64,000 bases of DNA from contig JAPLLW010000016.1 in assembly GCA_026387355.1 (NCBI GenBank), positions 6,240 to 70,239 of the forward strand. Reading direction: 5' to 3'. Source of the DNA: Candidatus Omnitrophota bacterium. Its GTDB lineage: Bacteria; Omnitrophota; Gorgyraeia; Gygaellales; Profunditerraquicolaceae. Shown piece by piece: positions 49,389 to 64,000 of the stretch. A program made the position numbers and the translations under genes. Below the pieces are notes generated by a model that did no database searches, was not told the DNA's origin, and worked only from the letters and a program-made list of their open reading frames with translations. Each line of letters begins with the position of its first letter. Within the stretch, counting starts at the first letter, position 1.

Positions 49389-51368
49389 CTAAACCCTGAT
49401 AGGTAATATGACAAACGGTATGCCCTGGCGGTATAACCTTTTTTGCATCGCAAAAACAGTATAGTTATGCAGCATGCGCACAACAAATGAATCATGTGGA
49501 AATATCAGCTGGCCTCCGAAAAAGACTGCATTTGGAAAGCGCGCGACAACCTTAGGTGCAATATTGCTTACTTCTTCTACAACATCTGTTCCGACATCAA
49601 AGAAACCTTCTGCGTAAAAACCCTGCTTATTCATAAACTTAATGTAACGGGAAATATCATTCTTGCCTTCGGTCTCTACGCGACCAACCTCGTCCTTACC
49701 TTTAAAATTTCCGGCGTCAACTACACCTATCTGTACAAATACAAAATTCTTAAAGATCCCACCGAATAACCTGATTACCCCAAAAAGAGTATGCAAACCA
49801 ATACCATTAAACCCGCTTATTAATAAAACAGCGGTCTTAGCTTTTGGGTCAAATTTATGTTCTAAGTTCAGATTTATCTCAGGATTTAAACGCGCATCCT
49901 CAGCTGACTCGGCAACGGTAACTAAATTATTTAACCTATGGAGCAGCTTTGTAGTTTGATAATAATGCCTCTTGATTAAGATCGCTAGTATAATCAGCGC
50001 GCCGGTAATGAATAAAGTGATCCAGCCACCTTCATTAAATTTCATAACAACCATAGAAACTAAAATAAAGGCGCTTAAAATAAGTCCCGTGCCGTTGATA
50101 AGTATCTTCTTGAGCCAGCCCTTAAATTGAGATCGCAACTGCCACCAGTGACGCACCATGCCTGTCTGGGATAAACAAAAGGTGAGAAAAACATTGATAC
50201 TATATAAAACTACAAGAAACTTAACCGAACCATTAGTAAGTACCATTAAAAATAGGGCAAGTCCTCCCATAATCAAAATGCCGTTCTGATTCACTAATCT
50301 ATCACTTAAAGCTGAGAATCTGTTAGGAAACCAGCGATCATTAGCCATATTTGCCAATACCCTAGGTCCATCTATAAAACCTGTTTGAGCAGCAACAAAA
50401 AGAAGCGTGGCTTCGGAAATTAAGGCAACCAGAACAAAAATATATCCGAACTTACCCCAGTCAACAGTAACCGCTTCGAATAAAATCGCATTTAAGGTTT
50501 TCCCGGATTGAGGAACAATCTTAAAGAGTAGGTAGGAAAACATTAAACCTAAAACTACAAAAGAAAGCGATATTGCCATATAGCGCATTGTATGCTTGGC
50601 TGTTTTTACCTTTGGTTCGCGTAAAACCGGCACACCATTACTAACTGCTTCGATCCCGGTAAAAGTACCGGCTCCCATACTATAAGCTTTCAGCACTAAA
50701 AAAATAGTCCCCCATATGCCTAGTGAGGTTATGGTATTATTCAAATCTCCTTTTGTAGCAGTAGCCAACTCACCTAAATTTGATGAATGCCTCCAGAAGG
50801 CATAGCCAATTATAAAGATATGGGTCACTAGAAAAGTTACGAAAATAGGGGTAAGCACTACTACTGATTCTTTTATCCCTCTCATATTCAGAATCATAAG
50901 AACTAAGACTATACCAACGGCAAAGGCCAGCCTATAAGAGTGCCACTCAATTGGTAGAAAACTAAATACGGCATCTGCGCCGGCAGCGATAGAAACCGTG
51001 ATCGTCAGGACATAATCAATCAGCAAGGCGCAACCTGAAACCATCCCTACGGTAGGAGAGATTAATTTACTAGCAACTAGATAACCCCCTCCTCCGCTAG
51101 GAAAAAGCTCAACTATCTGAGAATAACTTGCGCTTATAACAAATATAGTAATCACTGTTCCCAAAGCCACAAAAATACTTAAGAATGTGTGCGATCCTAA
51201 GGCGAGAAAAGCTTCCTGGGGACCGTAACATGAGGAAGATAACCCATCCGCACCTAAGCCTATCCAGGCAAAGAAGGCTATCAGGGATAATTTATGAAAG
51301 ATCCCGGGAGCTTGCGGATCCCGGGACCCTCCTAAAATAAGATTCTTAATTCTTTTGGTTAAAGACAT
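49389..51368 (-). CDS. APC-superfamily amino acid/polyamine permease with a ~200-aa cytoplasmic C-terminal domain
   Basis: About 12 TM helices typical of APC transporters, then a soluble C-terminal extension. Confidence 0.7.
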   Translation of the reverse strand: MSLTKRIKNLILGGSRDPQAPGIFHKLSLIAFFAWIGLGADGLSSSCYGPQEAFLALGSHTFLSIFVALGTVITIFVISASYSQIVELFPSGGGGYLVASKLISPTVGMVSGCALLIDYVLTITVSIAAGADAVFSFLPIEWHSYRLAFAVGIVLVLMILNMRGIKESVVVLTPIFVTFLVTHIFIIGYAFWRHSSNLGELATATKGDLNNTITSLGIWGTIFLVLKAYSMGAGTFTGIEAVSNGVPVLREPKVKTAKHTMRYMAISLSFVVLGLMFSYLLFKIVPQSGKTLNAILFEAVTVDWGKFGYIFVLVALISEATLLFVAAQTGFIDGPRVLANMANDRWFPNRFSALSDRLVNQNGILIMGGLALFLMVLTNGSVKFLVVLYSINVFLTFCLSQTGMVRHWWQLRSQFKGWLKKILINGTGLILSAFILVSMVVMKFNEGGWITLFITGALIILAILIKRHYYQTTKLLHRLNNLVTVAESAEDARLNPEINLNLEHKFDPKAKTAVLLISGFNGIGLHTLFGVIRLFGGIFKNFVFVQIGVVDAGNFKGKDEVGRVETEGKNDISRYIKFMNKQGFYAEGFFDVGTDVVEEVSNIAPKVVARFPNAVFFGGQLIFPHDSFVVRMLHNYTVFAMQKRLYRQGIPFVILPIRV

Positions 51369-53650
51369 TAAAAAGTAGCCTCGCTCTTTTTCTTAAAGCT
51401 TAAAGCACCGTGCTTTGAATACAGAATTGCCCCAAATATAATAACTAAACAAAGGACTATCCCAATTATAACACCTGTATCAGTTCTTTTGTAATGAATT
51501 ATTATAGGTGCGGCAAGAACCGAAACCAGGTTTATAACCTTAATCATCGGGTTTAATGCCGGGCCAGCAGTATCTTTTAAGGGATCTCCTACTGTATCAC
51601 CGACAACAGATGCTTTGTGCGCCTCTGAACCCTTACCTCCGTATAAACCGTCTTCAATTGTCTTCTTGGCATTATCCCAAGCACCGCCTGCAGTAGCCAT
51701 AAAAACCGCTAAAAGTTGTCCTGAGACGATTACGCCGGCAAGAAATCCACCTAATGCCTCAACCCTAAGCACCATGCCGATTAAAATCGGACTTAATACT
51801 GCAATTAAAGCTAAACCCACCAGCTCTTTTTGCGCAGCCACTGTACAAATATCCACTACTTTTTTATAATCGGGCTTTACCTTACCTTCCATTAATCCGG
51901 GTATATGAAATTGCTTGCGCACTTCCTCTACAATCATGGTAGCAGCACGTGCAACAGCAGTAATCATAAGACTAGAAAACAAGCACGGGATAGCCGCACC
52001 TATTAATACACCTACAAAAACAATCGGTTCTGAAACTCGTATACCTGTTGCCATAATGCGTAAAGCCTCAGGTAATCCCATCTGCATCTGGGCCTTTGCA
52101 ACATCAGTTAAAAACGCGCCGAATAAAGAAACAGCGGCAATAACTGCCGAGCCGATTGCCACACCTTTAGTAATCGCCTTAGTAGTATTACCTACGGCAT
52201 CTAAGTCAGCCATAATCTTGCGTGCCTCTGGCTCTAAATGTGCCATCTCGCCAATTCCATTAGCATTATCAGCGATAGGACCAAAAGAATCCATGGCCAC
52301 ATTGTTGCCGGTTAAAGTAAGCATACCAATGCCGGTCATTGCTACGCCGTAAAGAATGTAAACCACCGGCTGGCCCCAATAAATCATAACCGCTGCGGTA
52401 ATAGTTAAAGCGATAACTATAAACTGCCAGGCTGCTGATTCAAGGCCGATAGAAAGCCCGCGTAAAATCAGAGTAGCTGAACCTGTGCGGCTGGCACTTG
52501 CAATTTCTTTTACCGGCGCATGATGCGTATGTGTGAAATATTTAGTTATCTCATCAATAAGAATAGCTAGAACTATACCCATACCTACGGATAAAAATGC
52601 CCGCCATTCATGCATATAGAAATGCGCTAATATCATAAACGCAAATACAGAGATAGCTGCGGAGGCATAGAAACCGCGGTTGATACTCTTAAATGCATCT
52701 TCCCCGCCTTTTGCGCCTTTCTTACCCTTAACTAGATAAGTACCAATAATAGATGAGACAACTCCGATACCGCGCACAAGCAGCGGAAAAATAATCCACT
52801 TTAATTCACCCGTTAGAGAGACAAGCGCTAAACCTAAAATCAAAGCAGATACAATGGTTACTTCGTATGATTCAAATATATCTGCTGCCATACCTGCGCA
52901 ATCACCGACATTATCACCTACTAGATCAGCAATAACTGCGGCATTTCTCGGATCATCCTCAGGTATATTCTTTTCAACCTTACCTACAAGGTCAGCCCCT
53001 ACATCTGCTGCCTTAGTATATATTCCGCCACCCACGCGCATAAAGAGCGCAAGCAGGGTACCACCGAATCCGAAACCAAGCAGAACATCGGGAGAAGCAA
53101 TACCAAAAACAATAAAGATTATTGTCCCGCCGAATAATCCTAAACCATCAGTAAGCATACCTGTAACCGTACCTGTGCGATAGGCAATCTTTAATGCCTC
53201 GGCAAAACTTCTGCGCGATGCACTCGCCACGCGCACATTGCCGTCAACAGCCATACGCATACCGAATTGGCCAACCGCTAGAGAGAAAAATGCGCCCATT
53301 ACAAAAGCAGCGGCTCTACCGAAACCGACAATAAGCTTAACCATATCCGGGCTAAATCTGCTAAAGCGCGTTAACGCCTCATCTGTCGGAGGAATAATAT
53401 ATACCGAGAAAAATAATACGCCTGTAAGCACAAAAATTAAAGGTAGTATGCTTTTTAACTGGCGGCTTAAATATGCATCAGCACCCGAGCGTATTGCGCC
53501 CCAAACCTCCTGCATCGCAGCTGTCCCTTTATCATGGCGCATAACCTGGCTGCGTAGAAAAACAGCATAACCTAAACCCAACAAGGCAATCAAAAGTACA
53601 CTCCAGATTGCAACTACTTCAAATAAACTTGCCTGCATTAAACCTAACAT
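51368..53650 (-). CDS. hppA: membrane-bound proton/sodium-translocating pyrophosphatase (V-PPase)
   Basis: 760 aa, about 16 TM helices. GDNVGDCAGMAADIFESY and DAVGNTTKA signature motifs. Confidence 0.9.
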   Translation of the reverse strand: MLGLMQASLFEVVAIWSVLLIALLGLGYAVFLRSQVMRHDKGTAAMQEVWGAIRSGADAYLSRQLKSILPLIFVLTGVLFFSVYIIPPTDEALTRFSRFSPDMVKLIVGFGRAAAFVMGAFFSLAVGQFGMRMAVDGNVRVASASRRSFAEALKIAYRTGTVTGMLTDGLGLFGGTIIFIVFGIASPDVLLGFGFGGTLLALFMRVGGGIYTKAADVGADLVGKVEKNIPEDDPRNAAVIADLVGDNVGDCAGMAADIFESYEVTIVSALILGLALVSLTGELKWIIFPLLVRGIGVVSSIIGTYLVKGKKGAKGGEDAFKSINRGFYASAAISVFAFMILAHFYMHEWRAFLSVGMGIVLAILIDEITKYFTHTHHAPVKEIASASRTGSATLILRGLSIGLESAAWQFIVIALTITAAVMIYWGQPVVYILYGVAMTGIGMLTLTGNNVAMDSFGPIADNANGIGEMAHLEPEARKIMADLDAVGNTTKAITKGVAIGSAVIAAVSLFGAFLTDVAKAQMQMGLPEALRIMATGIRVSEPIVFVGVLIGAAIPCLFSSLMITAVARAATMIVEEVRKQFHIPGLMEGKVKPDYKKVVDICTVAAQKELVGLALIAVLSPILIGMVLRVEALGGFLAGVIVSGQLLAVFMATAGGAWDNAKKTIEDGLYGGKGSEAHKASVVGDTVGDPLKDTAGPALNPMIKVINLVSVLAAPIIIHYKRTDTGVIIGIVLCLVIIFGAILYSKHGALSFKKKSEATF

Positions 53651-53668: not shown

Positions 53669-54073
53669 TTACTTCTCTGTTGTTGCTGCTATATTAAGAT
53701 TTTTTATTCCCACCATGTTTAATATATCTAACACATCAACGATATCTTTAAAACGCACCAATCTATCCGAACTAATAACTACCCCTACATTAGGATTCTC
53801 TTGGTATCTTGCTAAAACCCTATTCTTTAATTCTTTCCTGGTAATCAAATCATCATCCAGATATATCGCCCCTTCGTTGGTTATAACAATATTCACCGGC
53901 CTCTCAGTCTTAGTAGGAGTAGCACTTGCTGCTACAGGCAAATTTACTTTAATACTCGATTGAATAATCAGAGGCGTTGTAATCATGAATACTATCAAAA
54001 GCACCAAGATAACATCGGTAAACGGAGTTATATTTATCTCTGCTATTAGATGTTTTCTGGTTCGGCCCTTCAT
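53669..54073 (-). CDS. exbD: ExbD/TolR-family biopolymer transport protein
   Basis: 134 aa, single TM then periplasmic domain. Overlaps exbB. Confidence 0.75.
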   Translation of the reverse strand: MKGRTRKHLIAEINITPFTDVILVLLIVFMITTPLIIQSSIKVNLPVAASATPTKTERPVNIVITNEGAIYLDDDLITRKELKNRVLARYQENPNVGVVISSDRLVRFKDIVDVLDILNMVGIKNLNIAATTEK

Positions 54074-54687
54074 CTTTTTTTAACAGCTAATAAATCCATT
54101 ATTTCGGATGCGCAAAGCTCCATATCAGAGATAAAATTATCGATCTTTTTTAAAAAATAATTATAGGCCATAACCGCAGGCACTGCCACGCATAAACCTA
54201 CGGCTGTGCAAGCAAGCGCCTCAGAGATACCATTGATTACTACGCTAATTCCACCAGCTCCACTTAATGAAATATCGTGAAATGCGCGAATTATTCCTAA
54301 AACGGTTCCAAATAGCCCGATATATACCGCAGTACTTCCTATGGTTCCCACAATACTGGCATAGCGCTCTAATTTAGTAGTCTCGACCGTGATCTCTCTT
54401 TCCATGGTGTTAGAAATAAGCACTTCGCTATGGCCATGCAGAGTCAATCCAGAAAATACAACACCGGCAAATGGAGTATCTGTCTCTTTACAAATCACTA
54501 AAGCCTTACCCACCTCTCCCTTTTCCAGCTCACGGGTAATCTTTAGCATAAAAGCAACTCTCTTCATGCGCGATCTCTTCTTATAATATCTAATTCTCTC
54601 AATAATAATGGTAAGCGATAAAACAGAACACGCTATTAAAATGTATACGGTAAATCCCCCGGCTTTAAGCAATTGCCATATTGTCAT
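54070..54687 (-). CDS. exbB: MotA/TolQ/ExbB-family proton channel
   Basis: 205 aa, three TM helices with a conserved C-terminal channel region. Confidence 0.75.
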   Translation of the reverse strand: MTIWQLLKAGGFTVYILIACSVLSLTIIIERIRYYKKRSRMKRVAFMLKITRELEKGEVGKALVICKETDTPFAGVVFSGLTLHGHSEVLISNTMEREITVETTKLERYASIVGTIGSTAVYIGLFGTVLGIIRAFHDISLSGAGGISVVINGISEALACTAVGLCVAVPAVMAYNYFLKKIDNFISDMELCASEIMDLLAVKKR

Positions 54688-55206
54688 CTAGAATTCCTCC
54701 TTAAGAATTTCTTTAATCTTAGCTACACAAAAATCAGCTGACTTTTTCACGACTAGAGAAACCTTACTGTTAAATTTAAGCTCCTTAGGCTGAATACCAA
54801 GCACCATAACCTGGCAATCCAAAGATTGAATTAGGTAATCCGCCAGAATACTTAAAGGTAACTGATGCGTTGAAAAAGATACCCCGCCTATTTTATCCGC
54901 CTCAATAAGCTCAATTGCGCCTGCCGGCTTTCCTATATCAGCAGAATCAACGATTATGATGTGTGTTGGCTTAAACTTCTTTATTTCTCCGGTAATATTT
55001 TCCGGGGCAGTATCGCCAATAAAAACCTTGATTCTTTTTTCTTTCGGATTTTTCTGAATAAATCTATCCAAGCCACGGGCGACAATAATTCCGGCAGCAT
55101 CATCGCCTCGCAGAACTGAGCCAACCCCAAGCAGAGCGATCTTTTTTGCCTTCTTTAATCTACTGCTTAGGGCAATCTTTAGGCCTAGATTCATCCTGAA
55201 AAACAA
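54688..55206 (-). CDS. hycI: [NiFe]-hydrogenase maturation endopeptidase (HycI/HyaD family)
   Basis: [16 protein letters not shown] ... [16 protein letters not shown], typical of hydrogenase C-terminal processing proteases. Confidence 0.75.
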
Positions 55207-55543
55207 CCTTTAGTTTTTCGCGGTCTAATTGGGCAAGCTCCACATCGCTTGTGCAAAGAAGTGCCTTTTTAAAACACGAATCTACACACTGGCCGCAGAA
55301 TATACATTTACTATTATCAATTTGAGCCTGGAATTGTTTTTCACCGGTCTTAACAATCACTATCGCGCCTGTCGGACAATCCTTCATGCACATCTTACAA
55401 CCAACGCATTTCTCAGGAAAGAATTTAAGTTTGCCGCGGTAATTGTCTGCCATCTCCAGCTTCTCAGCAGGATATTTACTTGTCGCCGGCTTTTTAAATA
55501 TAGAACGCAAAACCTCCTGCATCATCTTGCCGGGCCTAATCAT
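55160..55543 (-). CDS. 2x[4Fe-4S] ferredoxin subunit (NuoI/HycF-like)
   Basis: Two CxxCxxCxxxCP motifs ([23 protein letters not shown]). Confidence 0.8.
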
Positions 55544-56478
55544 CGCAAAACTCCTTTTAAGACAAGGTTAATCAAGATTTGTAGGAGCGCAAAAGGAACC
55601 AGAAGTTTCCAGCAGAAATCAATCATCTGGTCTATGCGTAACCGCGCTACAACTGTACGCAATAAAGAAATTAAGGCGATAATTCCTAAGATTTTCAGGA
55701 TAAAAACAACAAAACTTAAAAACGCACTTTGAAAGAACCCGAATGGGAAAAATACCGCAGCTAATAGAGCTGCTCCTGATACCATTTCAATATCAATACA
55801 CAATCTTAAAAATGCCAAGAGCTTCCCGCTATACTCCGTAAAAGCTCCTGCAACAACCTCAGTCTCTGCCTCAGGGATATCAAAAGGGGTCTTCTCAAGT
55901 TTACCCAAGAGTGCAACAAGTGAAACAAAGAAACCGATTAAATTAAAACACCAATACCAGGGATGCCGAGTATAAAATAAAACTATATCTACTAGCGACC
56001 AGCTATTCGCTAACAGGGCAGATGCCAATATGCTCATAAATAAAGGAACTTCGTAGGCGAATAACTGAGTTACCGCGCGCACTGAGCCAATCCTGGCGAA
56101 TAATGAAGTGGAATACCAGCCGCCAATGAAAAATGCCAGAGTGGGAATAGTAAGCAGATATAGAACCATAATAATATCGCCATTAAAAGAAAAAGGCGAG
56201 CTTGTATGCCAGAGCGGCGTATAAAGAAATGCTGTAATCACCGCCGTAAGAGCAAAAAGCGGGGCTGCATGAAACATGCGCGGGTTTGCCTGACAAGGAG
56301 TCACCTCTTCCTTGGCAATCAGCTTAATAATATCTGCAAAAGGCTGAAACCAGGGCGGACCGATTCTATTCTGTAATCTGGCATACAACTTCCTATCCAC
56401 ATATTCGGCTAATAAACCGGCAATGCTCACAAAAAGAAAACCCGGAAATACCAGAATATACAATAGCTCTTTAATCAT
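55540..56478 (-). CDS. NuoH/HycD-like membrane subunit
   Basis: 312 aa polytopic. Complex-I subunit-1 family features. Confidence 0.75.
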
Positions 56479-56482
56479 CAGG

Positions 56483-57718
56483 TTAAACCTTTAATCCCGC
56501 TTTGAAACGCTTATTCAAATCAGTAAAATCCGTCCCTCTTTCTCGATGCCACCTAATACTATAATCATGCAAAGTCGCCCAGCTGATCGTCTCGTTCTTT
56601 TTATTGCTGTCATACTCAATAGAAACCATCCTATCAGTACAAGAAAAACAAGGATCAATCGCGGCAATCACAATCGGCATATCCGCAAGATATCTGTCTT
56701 TAAGCATATGTTTTACTACTTGAATGTTCGCCAAGGTAGGCGCCCTTATTTTTACTCTCTCGGGCATCTCGCTTCCGTTGGCTTTAACATAATGCACATC
56801 TTCTCCGCGCGGTGCCTCGTATCGGCTAATCGCCTCTCCCGCAGGAATCTTACGCGCCACCTTTACTACAATCGGGCCTTGTGGCATATTCGCAATAGTC
56901 TGACGGATAATCTTATAGGACTCCATCAGTTCTTTTACGCGCACTATGGTGCGACCAAAAACATCGCAATGATTGTCGGTAATTACTTTAAAATCTAACT
57001 CGCCATAAGCAGCATAAGGATCATCCCTTCGCACATCCCTATCCAGACCTGATGCCCGGCCAGTTGGTCCAACCGCTTCCAGCCTTACTGCATCATCATA
57101 CGATACCACTCCTACTCCGGATAATCTTTTAATAATGGTTGTCTCTTTTGTCGCAACATCAATATAATATTTTGTCCTCTCTTCAAGCTGGCTAACTGCT
57201 TTTAAAACATCATTCGCCTGCTCAGGAGTAATATCGCGACGCACTCCACCGATAGTATTCATCCCATAATTAACGCGATTCCCGGTTAACATTGCTAAAA
57301 TATCCATTACAATCTCGCGGTCGCGCCAACTATACATTAAAAGCGTATCAAATCCTATTTCATGGCCGGCAACACCCAGCCAAAGAAGATGACTATGCAC
57401 GCGCTCAAGTTCGGCAATAAGTGTCCTTATGTAAAGGGCCCTCTTGGGGACTTGAATGCCGGCAATCTCCTCGATCGCCTGCACAAAACAGGTAGCGTGA
57501 GTATGAGAACATATCCCGCAAACGCGCTCTATAAGATATAAATCCTGAGTATACGTATTCTGTTCGCATGCCTTTTCAATACCACGATGGTTATAACCGA
57601 GTCTAATCTCTACCCCTAGAATTTTCTCTCCTTTAAGGGCAACGCTAAACCCCTCCGGCTCTTTTAAGGCAGGGTGCTGCGGCCCCATAGGAATATTAAA
57701 TTTGTGTGAGTCATGCAT
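56483..57718 (-). CDS. group-4 [NiFe] hydrogenase large subunit (NuoD/HycE-like) with intact Ni-Fe ligands
   Basis: N-terminal RVCGICSHTH (RxCGxCxxxH) and C-terminal DPCFSCTDR (DPCxxCxxR) followed by a ~45-aa tail, as in HycE which is processed after the Arg. Confidence 0.85.
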   Translation of the reverse strand: MHDSHKFNIPMGPQHPALKEPEGFSVALKGEKILGVEIRLGYNHRGIEKACEQNTYTQDLYLIERVCGICSHTHATCFVQAIEEIAGIQVPKRALYIRTLIAELERVHSHLLWLGVAGHEIGFDTLLMYSWRDREIVMDILAMLTGNRVNYGMNTIGGVRRDITPEQANDVLKAVSQLEERTKYYIDVATKETTIIKRLSGVGVVSYDDAVRLEAVGPTGRASGLDRDVRRDDPYAAYGELDFKVITDNHCDVFGRTIVRVKELMESYKIIRQTIANMPQGPIVVKVARKIPAGEAISRYEAPRGEDVHYVKANGSEMPERVKIRAPTLANIQVVKHMLKDRYLADMPIVIAAIDPCFSCTDRMVSIEYDSNKKNETISWATLHDYSIRWHRERGTDFTDLNKRFKAGLKV

Positions 57719-57736
57719 ATTTAAAAGCCTCCTATT

Positions 57737-58189
57737 TTATTCTTTTGCAGGATGCCAATCTTTACGTAAAGGAAACTCTCCCTGCGGCCAATCATCAGTT
57801 AAAGGATAACGATTGCCTTTAGGTAAGCCTTCTACCTTAGCTCCAAATAAATCCACTAGTTCACGCTCGTAAATCTCTGCGCTTACAAAATAAGGCATTA
57901 CTGTCTTTAGTACCGGGTTCGTCTTTGGTGCGCTTACCTTTATATTTAAGATTAATCCGCAGTCATGCGCAAGATGGTAAACAAAACTTAAATTCTCCCC
58001 CTCATCCAGCCCGCTAATAGTTAAAAGATGATTAAACTTTAATTCTTCTTTTGAGAATTTGATAATTTCTGCCAGATTCTGTAAATCTACGCTAAAGAAT
58101 ATCCTCCTAGCGCGCGTAATATTAACCTTACCCGAAAGATAACTAAATTTATCTTCTAACTCCTGCTTAATCTTCTCTTCTTGCGACAT
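57737..58189 (-). CDS. NuoC / HycE-N-like 30-kDa subunit
   Basis: 150 aa, Complex1_30kDa fold motifs. Confidence 0.7.
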   Translation of the reverse strand: MSQEEKIKQELEDKFSYLSGKVNITRARRIFFSVDLQNLAEIIKFSKEELKFNHLLTISGLDEGENLSFVYHLAHDCGLILNIKVSAPKTNPVLKTVMPYFVSAEIYERELVDLFGAKVEGLPKGNRYPLTDDWPQGEFPLRKDWHPAKE

Positions 58190-58668
58190 TACTCTCCTCC
58201 TACGGGTATTTCTTTAATAGTTTTAGGGCTAGCTTTAGATTCATCAAGACTTACCAGTAATTTTATTACTCCATCGATTATCGCCTTAGGACTGGCAGGG
58301 CAACCCGGTATGTACGCAGAAACCGGAATAGTTGTATCAATTCCGCCTTTTATATTATAGCAATCTTTAAATACCCCACCGCTACAAGAGCATGTGCCTA
58401 CCGCAACCACAAATTTAGGCTCAGCCATCTGCTCATAAATCCTTATAAGCCTGTCTTCTATTTGTTTAGTCACCGGGCCCGAACAAACTAATACATCCGC
58501 ATGCCTCGGGGTACCTTTAAGCTGTATGCCAAAACGCTCTATATCATAACGCGGAGTGAGCGCTGCAATAATCTCAATGTCGCAGGCATTGCATGCCCCG
58601 GTATTAAAATGCAGTATCCAGGGAGATTTTATTCTAGCCCAGGTTACAACCTTCTTAACTAGATTCAT
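58189..58668 (-). CDS. [NiFe] hydrogenase small subunit (NuoB-like, proximal [4Fe-4S])
   Basis: Cys ligands in GACNAC, GTCSCSGG and GCPASP. Confidence 0.85.
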   Translation of the reverse strand: MNLVKKVVTWARIKSPWILHFNTGACNACDIEIIAALTPRYDIERFGIQLKGTPRHADVLVCSGPVTKQIEDRLIRIYEQMAEPKFVVAVGTCSCSGGVFKDCYNIKGGIDTTIPVSAYIPGCPASPKAIIDGVIKLLVSLDESKASPKTIKEIPVGGE

Positions 58669-59009
58669 GCTTGCCTCTTTAATATAATAGTCAAACCCAC
58701 AATTGCACCCAATATATAAATAACCGCTATGGCAAAACTCCTCAAACTTTCAATGGGAACTGTTGCGATCATCAATGTAGCTACGTGCGCAAGTGTGAAG
58801 AAAAAAGCAAAAGGGAAGAAATTACTGTAATCCGGCTGAGCCATGTGATTATAATTATCCTCGCCGCAGGCATACGATTCACCTAATCCTTTAGCGATCT
58901 TCTTAGGCTTAAAGGCTAAACGGGATAATAAAACCGAAAGCAATATGCAAAAGAGAAGTATGATTATAAAAACTACCGGTGGATAGACAAGAAAGCTAGG
59001 CATTATCAC
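58665..59009 (-). CDS. NuoA (ND3)-like small membrane subunit
   Basis: Three TM helices. Loop SYACGED resembles the PYECG motif of NuoA. Confidence 0.5.
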   Translation of the reverse strand: MIMPSFLVYPPVVFIIILLFCILLSVLLSRLAFKPKKIAKGLGESYACGEDNYNHMAQPDYSNFFPFAFFFTLAHVATLMIATVPIESLRSFAIAVIYILGAIVGLTIILKRQA

Positions 59010-59326
59010 CCCTTCATGTTCCTGATATTTCTTATGTCGAGCGAATTCTTATGTGTATGTATTCCCAAAACTACACCTACGCTAACCGCCATAACTACTG
59101 CCTCAATAACTATTAAAGTAATAACTAGGGCCTGGGTTAACGCTACATGATCGGTGATATACCCGACGACAATCAAAAGAAGCGTAACTGCCTTAATTAA
59201 AATTTCAACTCCGATCAGCGCCCTGATTAGATTAAGGGTGGCAAAGAGGCAGTAAATCCCAATGACTAAAAGCATGAGTACGAAAACAAGAAAGGGCCAA
59301 AGTAATTGCAATGACTCAGCGTACAT
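59006..59326 (-). CDS. NuoK (ND4L)/MrpC-like membrane subunit
   Basis: 106 aa, three TM helices with a Glu in the TM2-like helix (IGVEILIKA). Confidence 0.6.
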   Translation of the reverse strand: MYAESLQLLWPFLVFVLMLLVIGIYCLFATLNLIRALIGVEILIKAVTLLLIVVGYITDHVALTQALVITLIVIEAVVMAVSVGVVLGIHTHKNSLDIRNIRNMKG

Positions 59327-59810
59327 TCTTACGCATCTCCTTAAATAGTATGACTACAGCAAAAGCTCCTGCCAAAAGTATAATTATCTGTCCGAATAAA
59401 TCTAATTGCCTAAAATTCCATAAGAGATTACGCACATTGCGCTCTGTCTCCGGGATAGGCAAAATTAAATCAAAATTTACCTTAATGAGCAAAAGAATTA
59501 ATCCTAAACCCAGGATTATAAAAGGTAAGAGCCTGAAACGCACTAACATAAGTTTCATACGCTCGATAATCTCTTTTTGCGAATACGGCTGAGTAAGGCT
59601 GATTACGCTTACAAACAAAACCGAGATTAAGCCTGCGCAAACCGAGAGTTCAAAAACCGCGGCAAGCGGTGAGGCGAGCCTAAACATTATTATAGCAAGT
59701 ATCACGCTAGTAAGTGCCAGGCCTATGCCTGAACGCAGAAGGCTTCTCGTCATTACCGTCCAGAGACTAGCCAAAACCAGAGCCACTAGAATAATTATGT
59801 TCAAAAACAC
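59316..59810 (-). CDS. NuoJ (ND6)-like membrane subunit
   Basis: 164 aa polytopic. AAVFELSVCAGLISVLFV resembles the NuoJ TM3 region. Confidence 0.5.
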   Translation of the reverse strand: MFLNIIILVALVLASLWTVMTRSLLRSGIGLALTSVILAIIMFRLASPLAAVFELSVCAGLISVLFVSVISLTQPYSQKEIIERMKLMLVRFRLLPFIILGLGLILLLIKVNFDLILPIPETERNVRNLLWNFRQLDLFGQIIILLAGAFAVVILFKEMRKNVR

Positions 59811-59811
59811 A

Positions 59812-61245
59812 TTAACCTCCGAAGATACTACTTACCGGCAAAATAAAAGTATTCAGTAAATAAGGGAAAGCTAATCCTGCACCCACGGTGATTACTGCAA
59901 GCAAAACTGTAGGAATCATAAAACCAAGCCCACCCTCCTTTATGTTCATAAGGTCTTCTCTTAATTTACCGAAGAAGACCATTCTTTGTAATGAGAGAAA
60001 GTAGGCTAGGGTCAAAACACTCCCCATTACTGCTATAATCGCATAAATATAATTACCGGATAACCAAAGGGCGATAACAATAATTAACTTACTCCAAAAT
60101 CCTGCCAAGGGCGGAATACCTGCCGCAGATAAACTCGCCAAGACCGAACTAAATCCTGTTATGGGCATCTTAGCGCTTAAGCCGCCGAGTTTCTGCATAT
60201 CCCGTGTGCCGGCCTGCGCTTCAACTGTTGCTGCATTCACAAAAAGCAGCGACTTAAAGATTGTGTGATTAAATAAGTGGAAAAGTGCGCCGGCTATGCC
60301 TAAGGTCGTACCACATCCTAACCCTAAAACTATATAACCTACCTGACTAATACTGGAAAAAGAAAGCATCCTCTTAAAATCAGTCTGGCCTAAAGCTGCT
60401 AACGCGGCAAAGATAATTGACGAAGCACCTACAAACATTAAAATCTTTTGAATCGGTAGATATAAACCAAATACCGATATCACTATGCGCATTAATGTAT
60501 AAACCCCTACGGTCTTAGTTACCACCCCTGCCAATAATACAGATACCGGACCAGGTGCAGCCGTATATGCATCGGGAAGCCAACCATGAAAAGGCATAAG
60601 CCCTGCCTTTATAAAAAGGCCACAGATAAAAGTTATCATAGCGATCATAATCAACGGATTATATGTTGAATACAATAAGCTTGCGGATATCGCCGAAAAA
60701 GAAGTGCTCCCTGAGACAAGCAAAAGTAAGGCAATAGCGGTTAACATCATAATGCTTGCTACTGACGAGAGTATAATATATTTGAACGCCCCCTCTAAAG
60801 CCAGCATCTCTTTATTAAAAGCTATTAAAACAAATGATCCTACTGCTACAATTTCAAGAAAAACATACAAAGAAAATATATCCGTTACCAGCACAACACC
60901 GTTTAACCCCGAGACGATAATAAGCAAAAGATTAATAAAGTTAAACCTGCGATCGTCATCTTTAATCATTTGCTTAGCTAAAATAATCGTTACAAAGAAG
61001 ACGATCCCAATACAAAGTAACAAAACCCTTGTTATATTATCTGCGGCAAGATCAAACTTAAAGAAGTTGCTGATTACATATATAAAGCTACTCTGGTGAT
61101 ACGTTTCAGGGAAAATAGCAAAAATTATCTGCGCAACCGATAATAATAATGCAACCCAAAGGGCAGTCTTCTTCGCCCAGCCCTTTAAGAACATATTCAT
61201 TATCAGGACACAGAAAAACGGTTTTAGGATTAATGCAGAATACAC
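59812..61245 (-). CDS. NuoN/MrpD-like antiporter subunit
   Basis: 477 aa. PFHGWLPDAYTAAPGPVSVLL broken-helix motif of the Mrp/ND2/4/5 family. Confidence 0.8.
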   Translation of the reverse strand: MYSALILKPFFCVLIMNMFLKGWAKKTALWVALLLSVAQIIFAIFPETYHQSSFIYVISNFFKFDLAADNITRVLLLCIGIVFFVTIILAKQMIKDDDRRFNFINLLLIIVSGLNGVVLVTDIFSLYVFLEIVAVGSFVLIAFNKEMLALEGAFKYIILSSVASIMMLTAIALLLLVSGSTSFSAISASLLYSTYNPLIMIAMITFICGLFIKAGLMPFHGWLPDAYTAAPGPVSVLLAGVVTKTVGVYTLMRIVISVFGLYLPIQKILMFVGASSIIFAALAALGQTDFKRMLSFSSISQVGYIVLGLGCGTTLGIAGALFHLFNHTIFKSLLFVNAATVEAQAGTRDMQKLGGLSAKMPITGFSSVLASLSAAGIPPLAGFWSKLIIVIALWLSGNYIYAIIAVMGSVLTLAYFLSLQRMVFFGKLREDLMNIKEGGLGFMIPTVLLAVITVGAGLAFPYLLNTFILPVSSIFGG

Positions 61246-61258
61246 TAAAATTCTCCTT

Positions 61259-63097
61259 CTAAATAGAACGCAACAAAAACAAAATTACAAAAAACATACC
61301 TAAAAGCGACCAGGCCAGATAAACCGAGAAATTCCCCGTGTGCAGCTTTCTTATCCCGCCCGTTAAAGCTAAGGTTAAATTCACAGTAAATTTATCGTAT
61401 ATCCAATCAATGCCACGATCAATTCCATAACCAACTCTTGAAATTACGTTTACTAAATTTAACCCTATCTCGTATGGATCAAAGAACCTTCCCTCTGCCT
61501 TATTATAAATCCAGGATAACCCTGGGGCATAATGAATATGGTCTACGGCTTTTAAACCAGAACCATATCTTTTTACCCCGAAAAGATGATTTAATAAAGC
61601 CGCGGCCAAAACAATAAGCGTAACTACCACTAAGAATATATTTGTCGGTAAGCCATAGAAATTGTGGCCTCCAAGTCGAGCCTCTCCTAATATTGGTTGA
61701 ATAAAATTTTTAATCGGCAGGATATTAAAGACGCCAAAAATTATACAAGTAAGCGCAATAACTATCATGGGAAGCAGCATTGCAAGCGGTGCCTCTTTTA
61801 CATTCTTGTTCTCATCACTAATCTTACCCAGGAATGCTGCGTGACCCAATTTTAAGAATGAAGCGGCGGTAAGAAATGACCCGACAATTGCGGCAAGGTA
61901 AAATATCCACCCTCTCTCCAGCGCCCCATCATAGATAAGCTCTTTAGAGAAAAAACCGTTAAAAGGCGGCACTCCTGAGATAGCTAATGCTGCGACAGCA
62001 AAACAGACAAAGGTTATCGGCATATTCTTTCTTAAGCCGCCCAGCTTTGCTAAGTCTGTGCTCCCCGCTTCCTTCTCTACCGCGCCACCGGTAAGAAAAA
62101 GGCAGCTTTTATATAAAGCATTATTAACCATATGAAATAGCCCGCCGATAATACCCACAGGAAGCGCTGTCCCGATACCTAGAATCATATATCCAACCTG
62201 GCTAATAGCATGATACGAAAGCAGCTTTTTATAATCTTTCTGAATCAGCGCCATCATAACCGCTAAAATTATCGTAATTGACCCTATAGTCATAAGCATA
62301 ATGCTTATCCAGGTATGCGGATTCAATTTAAATAAATCCAAAGAGATTCTGGTTAAGAGATAAATTCCTAATAATTTTTCAAGGGCAGCCGGCATAAAAG
62401 CCATAAAAGGAAGCGGCGAATCAACTGCTGCGTCCGGAATCCAGCTATGAAACGGCATTGACCCTGCCTTTGAAATTGCACCGACCATTAATAAGATAAA
62501 AGCCAGACTACCAAGTAAATTCAAAGGAAGATTTATATTTGAAATAGTTAAAGTCCCGGCAAGTTGTCCGGTTAAAGCTATACCGAACATCATACATAGG
62601 TCTGTTATGCCTAAAATAATAAAGGCTTTGGTAGCAGTCTTAAAGGCGCCTTTGCCTCCGATAGCAATCAAACCGAATAAAGCTGCCAGAGATCCCTCCC
62701 AGAAAAAGAGCATAATCACCAGATTATCAGCAAGCACTGCCCCGTTAATAAAAGCCAGGGTGATCAAGAAATATGCGTAGAACTGATTTAAAAACTGCTT
62801 ACCGCGCATAAAAACAACTGAGTAGAACATAATCAGAAAACCGAAAAATGCGCTGGCAGATATTATAAATGCGCTAAAATGATATAGCCTTAATGAAAAC
62901 TCTAATCCGAATCCTACCCAGGGAAGTGCATAATAGAGGTTGGATTTAAATAAAGAAAACGTGACTACAAGATTTAATAATACGGCTATAAGCGAAATCC
63001 CCTCTTTTAATGCGCCGGACTTTTTAGGGGTAAGTAATGCGAGCAGGCCGCCAAGTAACGGTATTATAATAGGTAAGAGTAAGATCTTGTCTGTCAT
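61259..63097 (-). CDS. NuoL/MrpA-like antiporter subunit (long form)
   Basis: 612 aa. PFHSWIPDA motif plus a C-terminal extension consistent with the NuoL long helix. Confidence 0.8.
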   Translation of the reverse strand: MTDKILLLPIIIPLLGGLLALLTPKKSGALKEGISLIAVLLNLVVTFSLFKSNLYYALPWVGFGLEFSLRLYHFSAFIISASAFFGFLIMFYSVVFMRGKQFLNQFYAYFLITLAFINGAVLADNLVIMLFFWEGSLAALFGLIAIGGKGAFKTATKAFIILGITDLCMMFGIALTGQLAGTLTISNINLPLNLLGSLAFILLMVGAISKAGSMPFHSWIPDAAVDSPLPFMAFMPAALEKLLGIYLLTRISLDLFKLNPHTWISIMLMTIGSITIILAVMMALIQKDYKKLLSYHAISQVGYMILGIGTALPVGIIGGLFHMVNNALYKSCLFLTGGAVEKEAGSTDLAKLGGLRKNMPITFVCFAVAALAISGVPPFNGFFSKELIYDGALERGWIFYLAAIVGSFLTAASFLKLGHAAFLGKISDENKNVKEAPLAMLLPMIVIALTCIIFGVFNILPIKNFIQPILGEARLGGHNFYGLPTNIFLVVVTLIVLAAALLNHLFGVKRYGSGLKAVDHIHYAPGLSWIYNKAEGRFFDPYEIGLNLVNVISRVGYGIDRGIDWIYDKFTVNLTLALTGGIRKLHTGNFSVYLAWSLLGMFFVILFLLRSI

Positions 63098-64000
63098 CTA
63101 GCCACGCTCGCAATCTGCATCACAGTTCTCTGCACAAAAAAAGATGGATAGTTAATAAATATACCGCTAAACAAAGATAGTAAGCCTAAAAGGGCGACGC
63201 TAAAAATCATTACCGGGCTTGCCTCTTTTACTAGAGGAGCTTTAGCTTCGCTGAGAAAAACTAGATTAAATACCCTAAAAAGATAAATAATCGTTAAAAA
63301 CGCGCCAAACAAAAATACTGAACCTATCCATATCTGTCTAGCTTCTAAAGCGCCTGCAAAAACCAGATATTTACTAAAGAATCCTCCAAAAGGGGGTATC
63401 CCCATTACGGAGAAAGCGCAGAATAAGAATGCCACTGCGGTTATCGGCATTGTTTTAATTAATCCGCCGAGCTTAGTGATATCCTTTATCTTGGTATTCT
63501 GCTCAACTATGCCGGCACAAAGGAAGAGCCCGGCCTTAGCCAGTCCGTGCATTAATATGTAAAGCAGGGCTCCTGCAATGCCTAAGGTATTACCCAGCGC
63601 AAAACCAAAAAAGATAAAACCTATCTGGCTGATTGTGGAATACGCGATAATCCTTTTTAAATCAGTTTCTATAAGCGCAGCGCACGCGGCGACAATAGCG
63701 CTAGTAGCAGCTATTATGGGAATAAGCGTATGCCAAATATCGGGAAGGGTAAAAGTGACCAGGAACAACCTGGCAAAAACATAAACGCCGATTTTAACCA
63801 GCACCGCGGCGTGGAGCAAGGCTGTAACAGGCGAAGGGGCAACACCTGCATCAGGAAGCCAGGTATGAAAGGGGAGGGTTGCCGATTTAGAGAGAATCCC
63901 GACAAGTATCAATAATACTGCGATATTTGAAATCGGATCTTTAAGCAGCCACCTTATGCTAATCATATCAAAAGTCCCGGTCTGCTGATAAATATTTATA
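63094..64000 (-). CDS. NuoM/MrpD-like antiporter subunit (5' part lies beyond the window end)
   Basis: PFHTWLPDAGVAPSPVTALLHAAVLVKIG normally sits mid-protein. The Met at 63966 is therefore probably internal. Confidence 0.7.
   Translation of the reverse strand, partial: INIYQQTGTFDMISIRWLLKDPISNIAVLLILVGILSKSATLPFHTWLPDAGVAPSPVTALLHAAVLVKIGVYVFARLFLVTFTLPDIWHTLIPIIAATSAIVAACAALIETDLKRIIAYSTISQIGFIFFGFALGNTLGIAGALLYILMHGLAKAGLFLCAGIVEQNTKIKDITKLGGLIKTMPITAVAFLFCAFSVMGIPPFGGFFSKYLVFAGALEARQIWIGSVFLFGAFLTIIYLFRVFNLVFLSEAKAPLVKEASPVMIFSVALLGLLSLFSGIFINYPSFFVQRTVMQIASVAR

Follow-up and report, generated by a model that had tools for sequence, protein, structure and literature searches.

A probable ferredoxin-coupled [NiFe] hydrogenase of complex I architecture encoded by a twelve-gene operon of Omnitrophota

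Introduction

What kind of enzyme is made by an operon that joins the large subunit of a [NiFe] hydrogenase to a membrane arm of complex I size? This question is raised by 12 genes at one end of a 64,000-nucleotide stretch of DNA from a Candidatus Omnitrophota bacterium (assembly GCA_026387355.1, contig JAPLLW010000016.1, positions 6,240 to 70,239 of the forward strand), which we analysed as a whole and refer to as the window. Group 4g, under which we discuss the encoded enzyme, is to our knowledge the only large bin of energy-converting hydrogenases that lacks a characterised member. Membrane-bound hydrogenases of Omnitrophota have been reported as group 4g in papers on metagenome-assembled genomes (MAGs), some of them as 'Mrp-linked' (PMC8542988; PMC10066038), and 4g itself is a loose, polyphyletic bin whose function is unknown (PMC5037454; PMC13582414; PMC7886697). 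Of cultured bacteria, Elusimicrobium minutum Pei191 has been assigned an enzyme of the 'Mbh-Mrp type' (bioRxiv 10.1101/765248) and Endomicrobium proavitum a 4g hydrogenase (PMC11257099). Our filing of the window operon under 4g follows this Omnitrophota literature and the nearest labelled relative, Hfo (4g), and not a HydDB classification.

Here we propose, with a probability of about 0.7, that the operon encodes an 11-subunit, ferredoxin-coupled, proton-translocating and reversible group 4 [NiFe] hydrogenase with the architecture of complex I, together with the HycI protease that matures it. The evidence comes from the catalytic residues, the composition of the membrane arm, the absence of other input modules, and a gene order that recurs across more than 10 phyla.

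Twelve genes in one operon

ORF calling gave 12 contiguous, tightly packed open reading frames (ORFs) on the minus strand that fill positions 54688-64000 of the window. Gaps and overlaps between neighbours do not exceed 18 bp, except for a 47-bp overlap at the TTG start of hycI. In order of transcription the genes are:

63094..64000, minus strand: antiporter-like subunit 1 ('NuoM-like'); Proton_antipo_M at 251 bits plus Proton_antipo_N; 5' end beyond the window
61259..63097, minus strand: antiporter-like subunit 2 of the NuoL/MrpA type, 612 amino acids (aa); Proton_antipo_M
59812..61245, minus strand: antiporter-like subunit 3 ('NuoN-like'), 477 aa; Proton_antipo_M at 226 bits
59316..59810, minus strand: NuoJ-like subunit, 164 aa; Pfam Oxidored_q3 at E 5e-6, MbhD at 1.8e-3
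59006..59326, minus strand: NuoK-like subunit, 106 aa; Oxidored_q2 at 55 bits
58665..59009, minus strand: NuoA/ND3-like subunit, 114 aa with three transmembrane (TM) helices; Pfam Oxidored_q4 at E 2.6e-4, below the cut-off
58189..58668, minus strand: NuoB/HycG-like small subunit, 159 aa; Oxidored_q6 at 106 bits, one [4Fe-4S] site
57737..58189, minus strand: NuoC-like subunit, 150 aa, separate from the large subunit; Complex1_30kDa at 82 bits
56483..57718, minus strand: [NiFe] large subunit, 411 aa; Pfam Complex1_49kDa and NiFeSe_Hases
55540..56478, minus strand: NuoH-like membrane subunit, 312 aa; NADHdh at 250 bits
55160..55543, minus strand: NuoI-like 2x[4Fe-4S] subunit, 127 aa; Fer4 families
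54688..55206, minus strand: HycI-type endopeptidase, 172 aa when started at TTG (an alternative call gives 168 aa); TIGR00142

The first gene is complete on L002, a contig of 5.5 kb that comes from the same organism and is 100% identical; there it encodes 480 aa and is preceded by 192 bp of non-coding DNA up to the contig end. The operon starts with this gene, because in the Pfam-annotated relatives it is preceded by unrelated housekeeping genes that change from genome to genome, namely one for a flavodoxin-like protein in locus L005 and one for a beta-lactamase-like protein in locus L007. A scan for promoters and terminators across 48.5-64 kb returned counts at the level of the shuffled control, with all terminator-like sites lying inside ORFs, and is therefore uninformative on the limits of the operon.

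Compared with nuo, the gene blocks are permuted, M L N being followed by J K and then by A B C D H I. The initial annotation of this DNA had described a 12-gene minus-strand operon with three antiporter subunits and HycI, in an order matching neither complex I, Hyf nor Mbh. ORF calls, Pfam and NCBIfam agree on the former, and the order is indeed unlike that of all three systems.

A large subunit with the ligands of a nickel site

Judged by its motifs, the protein in the position of NuoD is a true group 4 [NiFe] hydrogenase large subunit. It carries the L1 motif RVCGICSHTH (Cys67, Cys70) and the L2 motif DPCFSCTDR (Cys357, Cys360), both of which match the group 4 patterns tested (C[GS][ILV]C[AGNS]xxH for L1 and [DE][PL]Cx[AGST]Cx[DE][RL] for L2), and the four Ni-binding cysteines are kept in 22 of 22 aligned family sequences. 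This bears out the initial annotation, which had called the protein a real hydrogenase and had named as its alternative a NuoD-like protein without these ligands. The HycE-type tail that it had also described aligns with the HycE C-terminal peptide downstream of the DPCYSCTDR motif; its length, however, is 48 aa after Arg363 and not about 45, within a range of 35-50 aa over the 22 aligned sequences. E. coli HycI cleaves HycE at the corresponding Arg. The HycI of the window scores 125 bits against TIGR00142 (NCBIfam cut-off 119) and keeps the residues that align with Asp16, Asp62 and His90 of E. coli HycI. Among structures in the PDB, the large subunit is closest to MbhL (6cfw_L, 320 bits), followed by HycE (283 bits) and Nqo4 (209 bits), with no NuoD chain above 209 bits.

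The same operon holds the rest of the group 4 gene set, namely NuoB-like, NuoI-like and NuoH-like subunits in addition to the antiporter-like ones. In the small subunit, Cys26, Cys29, Cys93/95 and Cys123 are the four cysteines of one [4Fe-4S] cluster, and its identity to the E. coli proteins is 43% for HyfI, 39% for HycG and 35% for NuoB. Two complete CxxCxxCxxxC motifs (Cys46/49/52/56 and Cys80/83/86/90) are found in the NuoI-like subunit, which has no extra domain and on which the NCBIfam models for NuoI, HycF and FpoI score 66-96 bits.

The NCBI NuoD model NF004739 (cut-off 360 bits) gives 342 bits on the window large subunit and 367 on an Hfo-like protein. True hydrogenases thus score around its cut-off, so that some will be named NuoD by annotation pipelines. 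Many database copies of the large subunit that bear the Ni cysteines are automatically, and wrongly, named 'NADH-quinone oxidoreductase subunit D', while others are annotated as nickel-dependent hydrogenase.

A predicted membrane arm of the complex I type

By sequence comparison, all 11 core subunit families of complex I (A, B, C, D, H, I, J, K, L, M and N) are represented in the operon. In each of the three antiporter-like subunits, the proton-path residues of NuoL-type proteins are in place: Glu in TM5 and Lys in TM7, TM11 and TM12. Subunit 1, whose best E. coli matches are HyfD and NuoL, retains TM5 Glu139, TM7 Lys217, TM8 Lys248, TM11 Lys334 and TM12 Lys389; the 612-aa subunit has Glu134, Asp166, Lys210, Lys330 and Lys385; and subunit 3, on which the MrpD, NuoM and NuoN models of NCBIfam score alike, has Glu131, Lys213, Lys331 and Lys386. 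Of the labels that the initial annotation had given them, the count of three antiporter-like subunits stands, but the names M-, L- and N-like are nominal, with the 612-aa protein as the only specifically NuoL-like one.

The closest PDB sequences to this 612-aa protein are Nqo12 (170 bits) and MbhH (168 bits), and it aligns with residues 2-577 of E. coli NuoL and with cyanobacterial NdhF up to residue 607. An AlphaFold2 model built with 44 homologs (pLDDT 83, pTM 0.81) places TM15 at residues 487-511, a 45-residue helix at 541-585 and the final TM16 at 590-611. In Foldseek comparisons, the full chain matches NuoL, ND5, NdhF and MrpA with TMq 0.75-0.78 over about 640 columns, whereas MbhH, which has no C-terminal extension, covers just 496 columns. 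The subunit is thus predicted by its model to carry a lateral helix of the NuoL type.

The first two antiporter-like genes appear to be fused in some genomes, as in P0354 (1006 aa), P0365 (1010 aa, Margulisiibacteriota) and L066:3246-6533 (a 1096-aa ORF).

The smaller membrane subunits also have counterparts in complex I. The N-terminal half of the NuoJ-like subunit matches MbsD and MbhD, which are DUF4040 proteins, in the PDB, and the whole chain aligns along E. coli NuoJ, including the TM3 motif 'E..V.AG'; the subunit therefore corresponds to MbhD and MbhE in one chain. Glu41 of the NuoK-like subunit aligns with Glu36 of NuoK. For the NuoA-like subunit, a search of the PDB with the single sequence was not significant (E 6.9); a 25-member profile matched exclusively ND3/NuoA chains (13 chains, best E 1.2e-3, full length), and it is on this profile-level match that the assignment as NuoA-like rests. 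Its 'YaCGE' motif, the equivalent of 'FECGF' in ND3, is invariant or nearly so. The NuoH-like subunit is 31% identical to NuoH and 28% to HycD, and keeps the loop 'PFDxPEAExE...EYSG' and the motif 'RxRxDQ...WK' as in NuoH.

Absence of other input and sodium modules

Which donor such an enzyme would use is suggested by what its surroundings lack. No NuoE, NuoF, NuoG, HycB or HyfA homolog was found within 10 kb on either side in 80 related loci (BLAST of ORFs of at least 60 aa against E. coli), no Fdh, carbon monoxide dehydrogenase (CODH) or CooF-type gene was found within 10 kb in these loci, and the window contains no NuoE/F/G gene. The absence of NuoE/F/G noted initially therefore extends to the relatives, and a canonical complex I that continues beyond the window edge is unsupported. 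With no other input module, a soluble low-potential carrier is left as the partner, most plausibly ferredoxin, on which Mbh, the closest solved enzyme, also depends, and the 4g enzymes of HydDB are presumed to be ferredoxin-coupled (PMC5037454; PMC7886697).

MrpE/F/G homologs, the equivalents of MbhA-C, were found neither among the ORFs of the operon nor in the Pfam-annotated relatives L005 and L007; since the 12 ORFs tile the region so closely, there is no space for such genes. The rest of the window, by its annotation, is given over to genes for housekeeping functions, glycolysis, the synthesis of branched-chain amino acids and the ATP synthase; no Rnf genes, Wood-Ljungdahl genes or second hydrogenase turned up in it.

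A widespread operon family

The initial annotation had taken the enzyme for an uncommon subtype. This does not hold, given that at least 8000 database proteins match the large subunit at E<=1e-20, and that at least 80 species-level genomes from more than 10 phyla carry a relative. The best 120 among the database matches listed are 74-100% identical to the large subunit, the identical protein being deposited from a Candidatus Omnitrophica MAG. In a scan of one genome per GTDB species, 232 relatives were found, of which the best 80, all from MAGs, were analysed; their large subunits are 66-79% identical to that of the window. Their hosts comprise Omnitrophota, Phycisphaerae/Sedimentisphaerales and other Planctomycetota, Krumholzibacteriota, Lentisphaerae, Kiritimatiellae, Verrucomicrobiota, Elusimicrobiota including Endomicrobiales, Spirochaetota, Riflebacteria, Fibrobacterota, Bdellovibrionota, Bacillota and a Rikenella MAG.

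When ORFs were called in these loci by a crude procedure and matched to the window proteins, the complete string M-L-N-J-K-A-B-C-D-H-I was recovered in 45 of the 80, the remainder being broken by contig ends or by the crude ORF calling, and hycI directly followed the nuoI-like gene in 56. No alternative gene arrangement was seen, save two orphan large-subunit genes. The best conserved subunit is the small subunit B, with a median identity to the window of 80%, followed by D (71%), M (67%), L (65%), H (61%), I (60%), J (56%), N (54%), K (54%), A (53%), C (52%) and HycI (47%). The loci thus form one coherent and widely distributed operon family, which is in no sense rare.

The two orphans are stand-alone 402-aa paralogs from Fibrobacterota (L079:9995-11203 and L084:9980-11188) that are 66-67% identical to the large subunit of the window, keep the four Ni cysteines and a tail of about 40 aa, and have no small or membrane subunit gene within 10 kb. 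Neighbours of the L084 copy encode an ArsP_2 metal exporter, a CDF cation-efflux protein, a rhodanese, a MauE/DoxX protein and a ferredoxin, and the upstream neighbour of the L079 copy encodes a phosphatidylserine decarboxylase. One Fibrobacterota MAG with an orphan copy also bears the full operon (L080).

Relationship to other group 4 enzymes

An exhaustive HMMER search of 1.84 billion representatives clustered at 50% identity returned 994 hits at E<=1e-30, the nearest of them being only 56, 53, 53 and 50% identical. In neighbour-joining (NJ) trees on Kimura-corrected distances (153 and 68 sequences, with bootstraps on the 68), the family forms a tight clade (96 of 100 bootstraps) with a within-family identity of at least 66% and a mean of 74%. 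A sister cluster joins it in 55 of 100 replicates, and Methanoregula, Hfo and Asgard archaeal sequences come next, the first two being the closest relatives with a label; support below the family clade is weak (at most 55%), and these deeper nodes carry no conclusions. The mean identity of the family is 54% to the Hfo-like protein (L091), 48% to MbhL, 39% to HyfG, 38% to HycE and 30% to NuoCD. On the NuoD model TIGR01962, HycE scores 209 bits, MbhL 253, the Methanoregula protein 300, the window protein 311 and the Hfo-like protein 332, so that by this score the clade and Hfo appear to be among the most NuoD-like of the true hydrogenases.

One locus of the sister cluster (L093:3446-13080, large subunit 56% identical) has hypA, hypB and a truncated hypF-like gene directly upstream, followed by only two antiporter-like genes (334 and 487 aa) and then J-K-A-B-C-D-H-I-hycI, from which it follows that the number of antiporter modules varies between sister lineages.

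Elsewhere in the sister clade, the locus L094:1744-2961 (protein P0142) keeps the order K-A-B-C-D-H and has lost the Ni-binding cysteines. At the four Ni-cysteine positions P0142, P0176 and P0197 read CGHG, GGCG and QYWN, with tails of about 45 aa in P0142 and P0176 and of 21 aa in P0197; only P0142 was placed on a contig. The three proteins look like recent conversions of a hydrogenase into an 'Ehr-like' protein within the same architecture.

Among characterised complexes, P. furiosus Mbh (group 4d, PDB 6CFW) provides the closest solved large subunit, and it shares with the window enzyme group 4 membership, the B-C-D-H-I order preceded by J/K-like subunits and, as predicted for the latter, the ferredoxin type and a large subunit that is processed at its C-terminus. 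Mbh differs in having 14 subunits, with an MrpE/F/G-like Na+ module (MbhA-C), a single antiporter-like subunit, separate MbhD and MbhE, and its lateral helix on a separate small subunit, whereas the window enzyme would have 11 subunits, no Na+ module, three antiporter-like subunits, one of which is of the NuoL type and bears the lateral helix itself, and an extra small subunit that is NuoA-like and not MbhI-like. Membership in 4d is rejected, since in the NJ trees the large subunit falls outside the MbhL group, and no MrpE/F/G-like module is present in the operon or in L005 and L007. An Mbh-like cluster of Methanoregula (L092) has a large subunit 53-56% identical and the same A-B-C-D-H-I-hycI operon tail, preceded by J-x-K, a fused 1094-aa antiporter and a 490-aa antiporter; here the antiporter genes lie between K and A, as in Mbh, and J is split into two small genes. 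To judge by its genes, it resembles an Mbh without the Na+ module.

The Fpo-like Hfo complex of Bathyarchaeia (Loh et al. 2021, PMC7886697; our locus L091) is alike in composition, with the 11 complex I core subunit types, an intact NiFe site and no Na+ module. Its large subunit is about 53-54% identical to those of the family. Hfo has the order A-B-CD-H-I-J-K-L-M-N with C and D fused, in contrast to M-L-N-J-K-A-B-C-D-H-I-hycI with C and D separate, it lacks an adjacent hycI and has an FrhB-like gene downstream, and the hosts of the bacterial family are of another domain. That downstream gene (L091:17370-18896) immediately follows the final antiporter gene. Its FrhB/FdhB-like product includes a CBS domain, and the resemblance to FpoF makes one ask whether the archaeal complex is truly free of an input module.

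Hyf of E. coli (formate hydrogenlyase 2, FHL-2, group 4a) likewise has three antiporter-like subunits, and a HycI-cleaved tail of the HycE type occurs in both Hyf and Hyc (FHL-1, PDB 7Z0S). The FHL complexes are set apart by a formate dehydrogenase wired through HycB/HyfA, a fused NuoC-D, the lack of NuoA/J-like subunits and another gene order; 4a membership is rejected on the lack of HycB/HyfA homologs in the 80 loci, the separate C and D and the low identity to HycE and HyfG. A NuoL lateral helix, the Glu and Lys residues of the proton paths and the loop motifs of NuoH are common to the window enzyme and the 11-subunit core of complex I. It departs from complex I in that D is a NiFe hydrogenase and not a quinone site, that a His replaces the Asp of NuoA, and that NuoEFG are missing. 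A canonical complex I is thus rejected on the intact Ni ligands and the lack of NuoEFG in the 80 loci.

Neighbouring genes

The operon is part of one unbroken co-directional block on the minus strand (42616-64000) that also includes the operon for an F1Fo ATP synthase, which is complete and contains an AtpZ/I-like gene. ExbBD, an H+-pyrophosphatase (H+-PPase) and the ATP synthase operon adjoin, as noted initially, and lie on the same strand:

54070-54687, minus strand: exbB, abutting the hydrogenase operon
53669-54073, minus strand: exbD, next to exbB
51368-53650, minus strand: H+-PPase, a membrane pyrophosphatase with 'GNTTKA'
49389-51368, minus strand: amino-acid permease, 659 aa
47745-47978, minus strand: F-type ATP synthase c subunit with 'IEALTIY'

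The junctions at exbB and exbD measure 0 bp and 4 bp, and no TonB gene is adjacent. In 13-14 of the 80 loci, all of them from Omnitrophota (including L007-L009, L011, L013, L014, L016, L017, L020, L023, L027 and L029), the nuoI-like gene or hycI is directly followed by exbB, exbD and the PPase gene; beyond this phylum the only hints came from exbBD-like genes at a distance in Krumholzibacteriota and from a single Spirochaetia locus with an exbB-like gene. A functional link between a generator of proton-motive force (pmf) and its consumers would be a guess. We take the Lys of the PPase motif 'GNTTKA' to mark a K+-independent, H+-pumping type, following the Belogurov-Lahti rule, and the c subunit motif 'IEALTIY' presumably lacks the Ser/Thr ligands for Na+; the spacing from helix 1 to RQPE in this c subunit seems longer than in the E. 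coli and I. tartaricus sequences. The window also encodes phosphofructokinase, aldolase, components of the phosphotransferase system (PTS) and a glucanotransferase.

Discussion

How would such a complex work? In the mechanism that we favour, HycI would remove the 48-aa tail after Arg363 once Ni has been inserted. Electrons from reduced ferredoxin would pass through the two [4Fe-4S] clusters of the NuoI-like subunit and the [4Fe-4S] cluster of the small subunit to the NiFe site, where two H+ would be reduced to H2. The energy released may be relayed conformationally and electrostatically along an 'E-channel' of the NuoH-, NuoA-, NuoJ- and NuoK-like subunits to the three antiporter-like subunits, which the lateral helix of the NuoL-like chain would clamp together, and these would translocate H+, probably not Na+, out of the cell. 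We favour H+ because the Na+ module of Mbh is missing, the PPase looks to be of the H+ type and the c subunit appears to be without Na+ ligands. The enzyme would be reversible, and the H2-evolving, pmf-generating direction seems the more likely one in a sugar-fermenting Omnitrophota host; the phosphofructokinase, aldolase, PTS and glucanotransferase genes of the window fit a fermenter that disposes of ferredoxin electrons as H2.

Several points weigh against this proposal. Donor, ion, direction and stoichiometry are what we infer for a clade that is known from its genes alone, and the choice of H+ over Na+ draws on absences and on neighbouring genes. The window holds no hyp genes in the annotation of its remainder, the second membrane Glu of the NuoK-like subunit (Glu75) is shifted by about 3 residues from the position of NuoK Glu72, and a nearly invariant His75 replaces the Asp of the 'FDVE' motif in the NuoA-like subunit. 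The energetics are also tight. Transfer of electrons from reduced ferredoxin to H2 yields about 0 to -40 kJ per H2, depending on the H2 pressure, and pays for about 1-2 H+, while the four-path layout of complex I moves 4 H+ on about -80 kJ. The energy is thus too small for a four-path arm, and either the stoichiometry or the direction must differ from a scheme in which every module pumps. Possibly not all modules pump in each cycle, the H2 pressure or the pmf is very low, some modules have other roles, or the enzyme frequently runs in reverse.

The last of these options leads to the most serious of the rival explanations, in which the complex acts mainly as a pmf-driven, H2-oxidising ferredoxin reductase that provides CO2 fixation or acetogenesis with low-potential electrons. 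This would account for a membrane arm oversized for a small driving force, a role of this kind has been proposed for archaeal Hfo (PMC7886697), Wood-Ljungdahl genes occur in many of the Omnitrophota that have 4g hydrogenases, and for the numerous acetogenic members of the phylum reverse operation is plausible (PMC10066038), and the co-directional H+-PPase and ATP synthase could energise the membrane. We nevertheless consider it unlikely, as the window pairs glycolytic and PTS genes with an absence of Wood-Ljungdahl genes, the operon is found equally in fermenters (for example Sedimentisphaerales, Kiritimatiellae, Spirochaetota and Endomicrobiales), and the characterised relatives Mbh, FHL and Ech all produce H2 under physiological conditions, albeit in a reversible reaction. 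A second rival would be of the Mbh type, 'Mrp-linked', and would set up a Na+ gradient. Such an enzyme is what the literature label 'Group 4g, Mrp-linked' and the Mbh model of Na+/H+ exchange, as applied to Omnitrophota and Cloacimonadota MAGs (PMC8542988), would lead one to expect, and MbhL as the closest solved large subunit and the MbhD/MbsD-like half of the J-like chain agree with it. That reading is improbable in view of the absence of MrpE/F/G (MbhA-C) homologs from the operon and its flanks, the three antiporter-like subunits with a lateral helix inside the NuoL-type chain, the fused D/E, a NuoA-like rather than MbhI-like subunit, the separation of the clade from MbhL (48% identity, 96/100), and a PPase and c subunit that look H+-type.

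A formate- or CO-dependent hydrogenlyase (similar to 4a, 4b or 4c) whose dehydrogenase partner is encoded elsewhere would share with Hyf the three antiporter-like subunits and with HycE and HycI the tail and protease. Its chances are slim, considering that the 80 loci and the 10 kb around them contain no gene for Fdh, CODH, HycB or a CooF-type protein, that the large subunit is separate from NuoC and only 38-39% identical to HycE and HyfG, and that the NuoI-like subunit lacks an extra domain. The complex might, at the far end, not be a hydrogenase at all but an 11-subunit complex I or Ehr-type complex that reduces quinone or another acceptor, a notion to which the NF004739 score just below the cut-off, the automatic NuoD names in the databases and the existence of close relatives without Ni ligands (P0142 in L094) lend some colour. 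The Ni cysteines, L1 and L2 motifs, presumably cleavable tail and adjacent HycI, all present here and clade-wide, refute it for the window locus and leave it next to no probability.

We therefore return to the ferredoxin-coupled, proton-translocating hydrogenase as the preferred reading, and ask what is new about it. It is not a new kind of enzyme, as the sequences are public, Omnitrophota '4g Mbh' appear in MAG surveys and an archaeal 11-subunit analogue has been described. New relative to the literature that we consulted are a bacterial clade with the full 11-subunit complex I set and a NuoL lateral helix, and its fixed M-L-N-J-K-A-B-C-D-H-I-hycI order across more than 10 phyla. The 'Mrp-linked, Na+' cartoon of the Omnitrophota enzyme is probably wrong, because there is no Mrp Na+ module.

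This matters for the organisms that carry the operon, since the clade is the most abundant 4g form that we have seen in uncultured anaerobes of the Omnitrophota, Planctomycetota, Verrucomicrobiota/Kiritimatiellae/Lentisphaerae, Elusimicrobiota, Spirochaetota, Fibrobacterota and Bacillota, and metabolic models of the host phyla copy the Na+/Mrp scheme of Pyrococcus Mbh although the Na+ module is absent here. With a low-energy reaction and a complex-I-sized arm in one enzyme, its structure and H+/H2 ratio would bear on the evolution of complex I from hydrogenases, and on the link between pumping stoichiometry and the number of antiporter modules. As a more tentative idea, the clade may be the bacterial counterpart of Hfo, a true hydrogenase on a full complex I chassis (three functional antiporter modules, a NuoL lateral helix and NuoA/H/J/K) that has spread by horizontal gene transfer through more than 10 anaerobic phyla and whose catalytic core is exceptionally conserved. 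As electron transfer from ferredoxin to H2 does not pay for four protons, such an enzyme would have to work with an H+/2e- ratio that is lowered or variable, or else run as an H2:ferredoxin oxidoreductase driven by the pmf. If this were true, it would offer a test case for how coupling ratios are set in machines of the complex I type and for the origin of complex I from hydrogenases.

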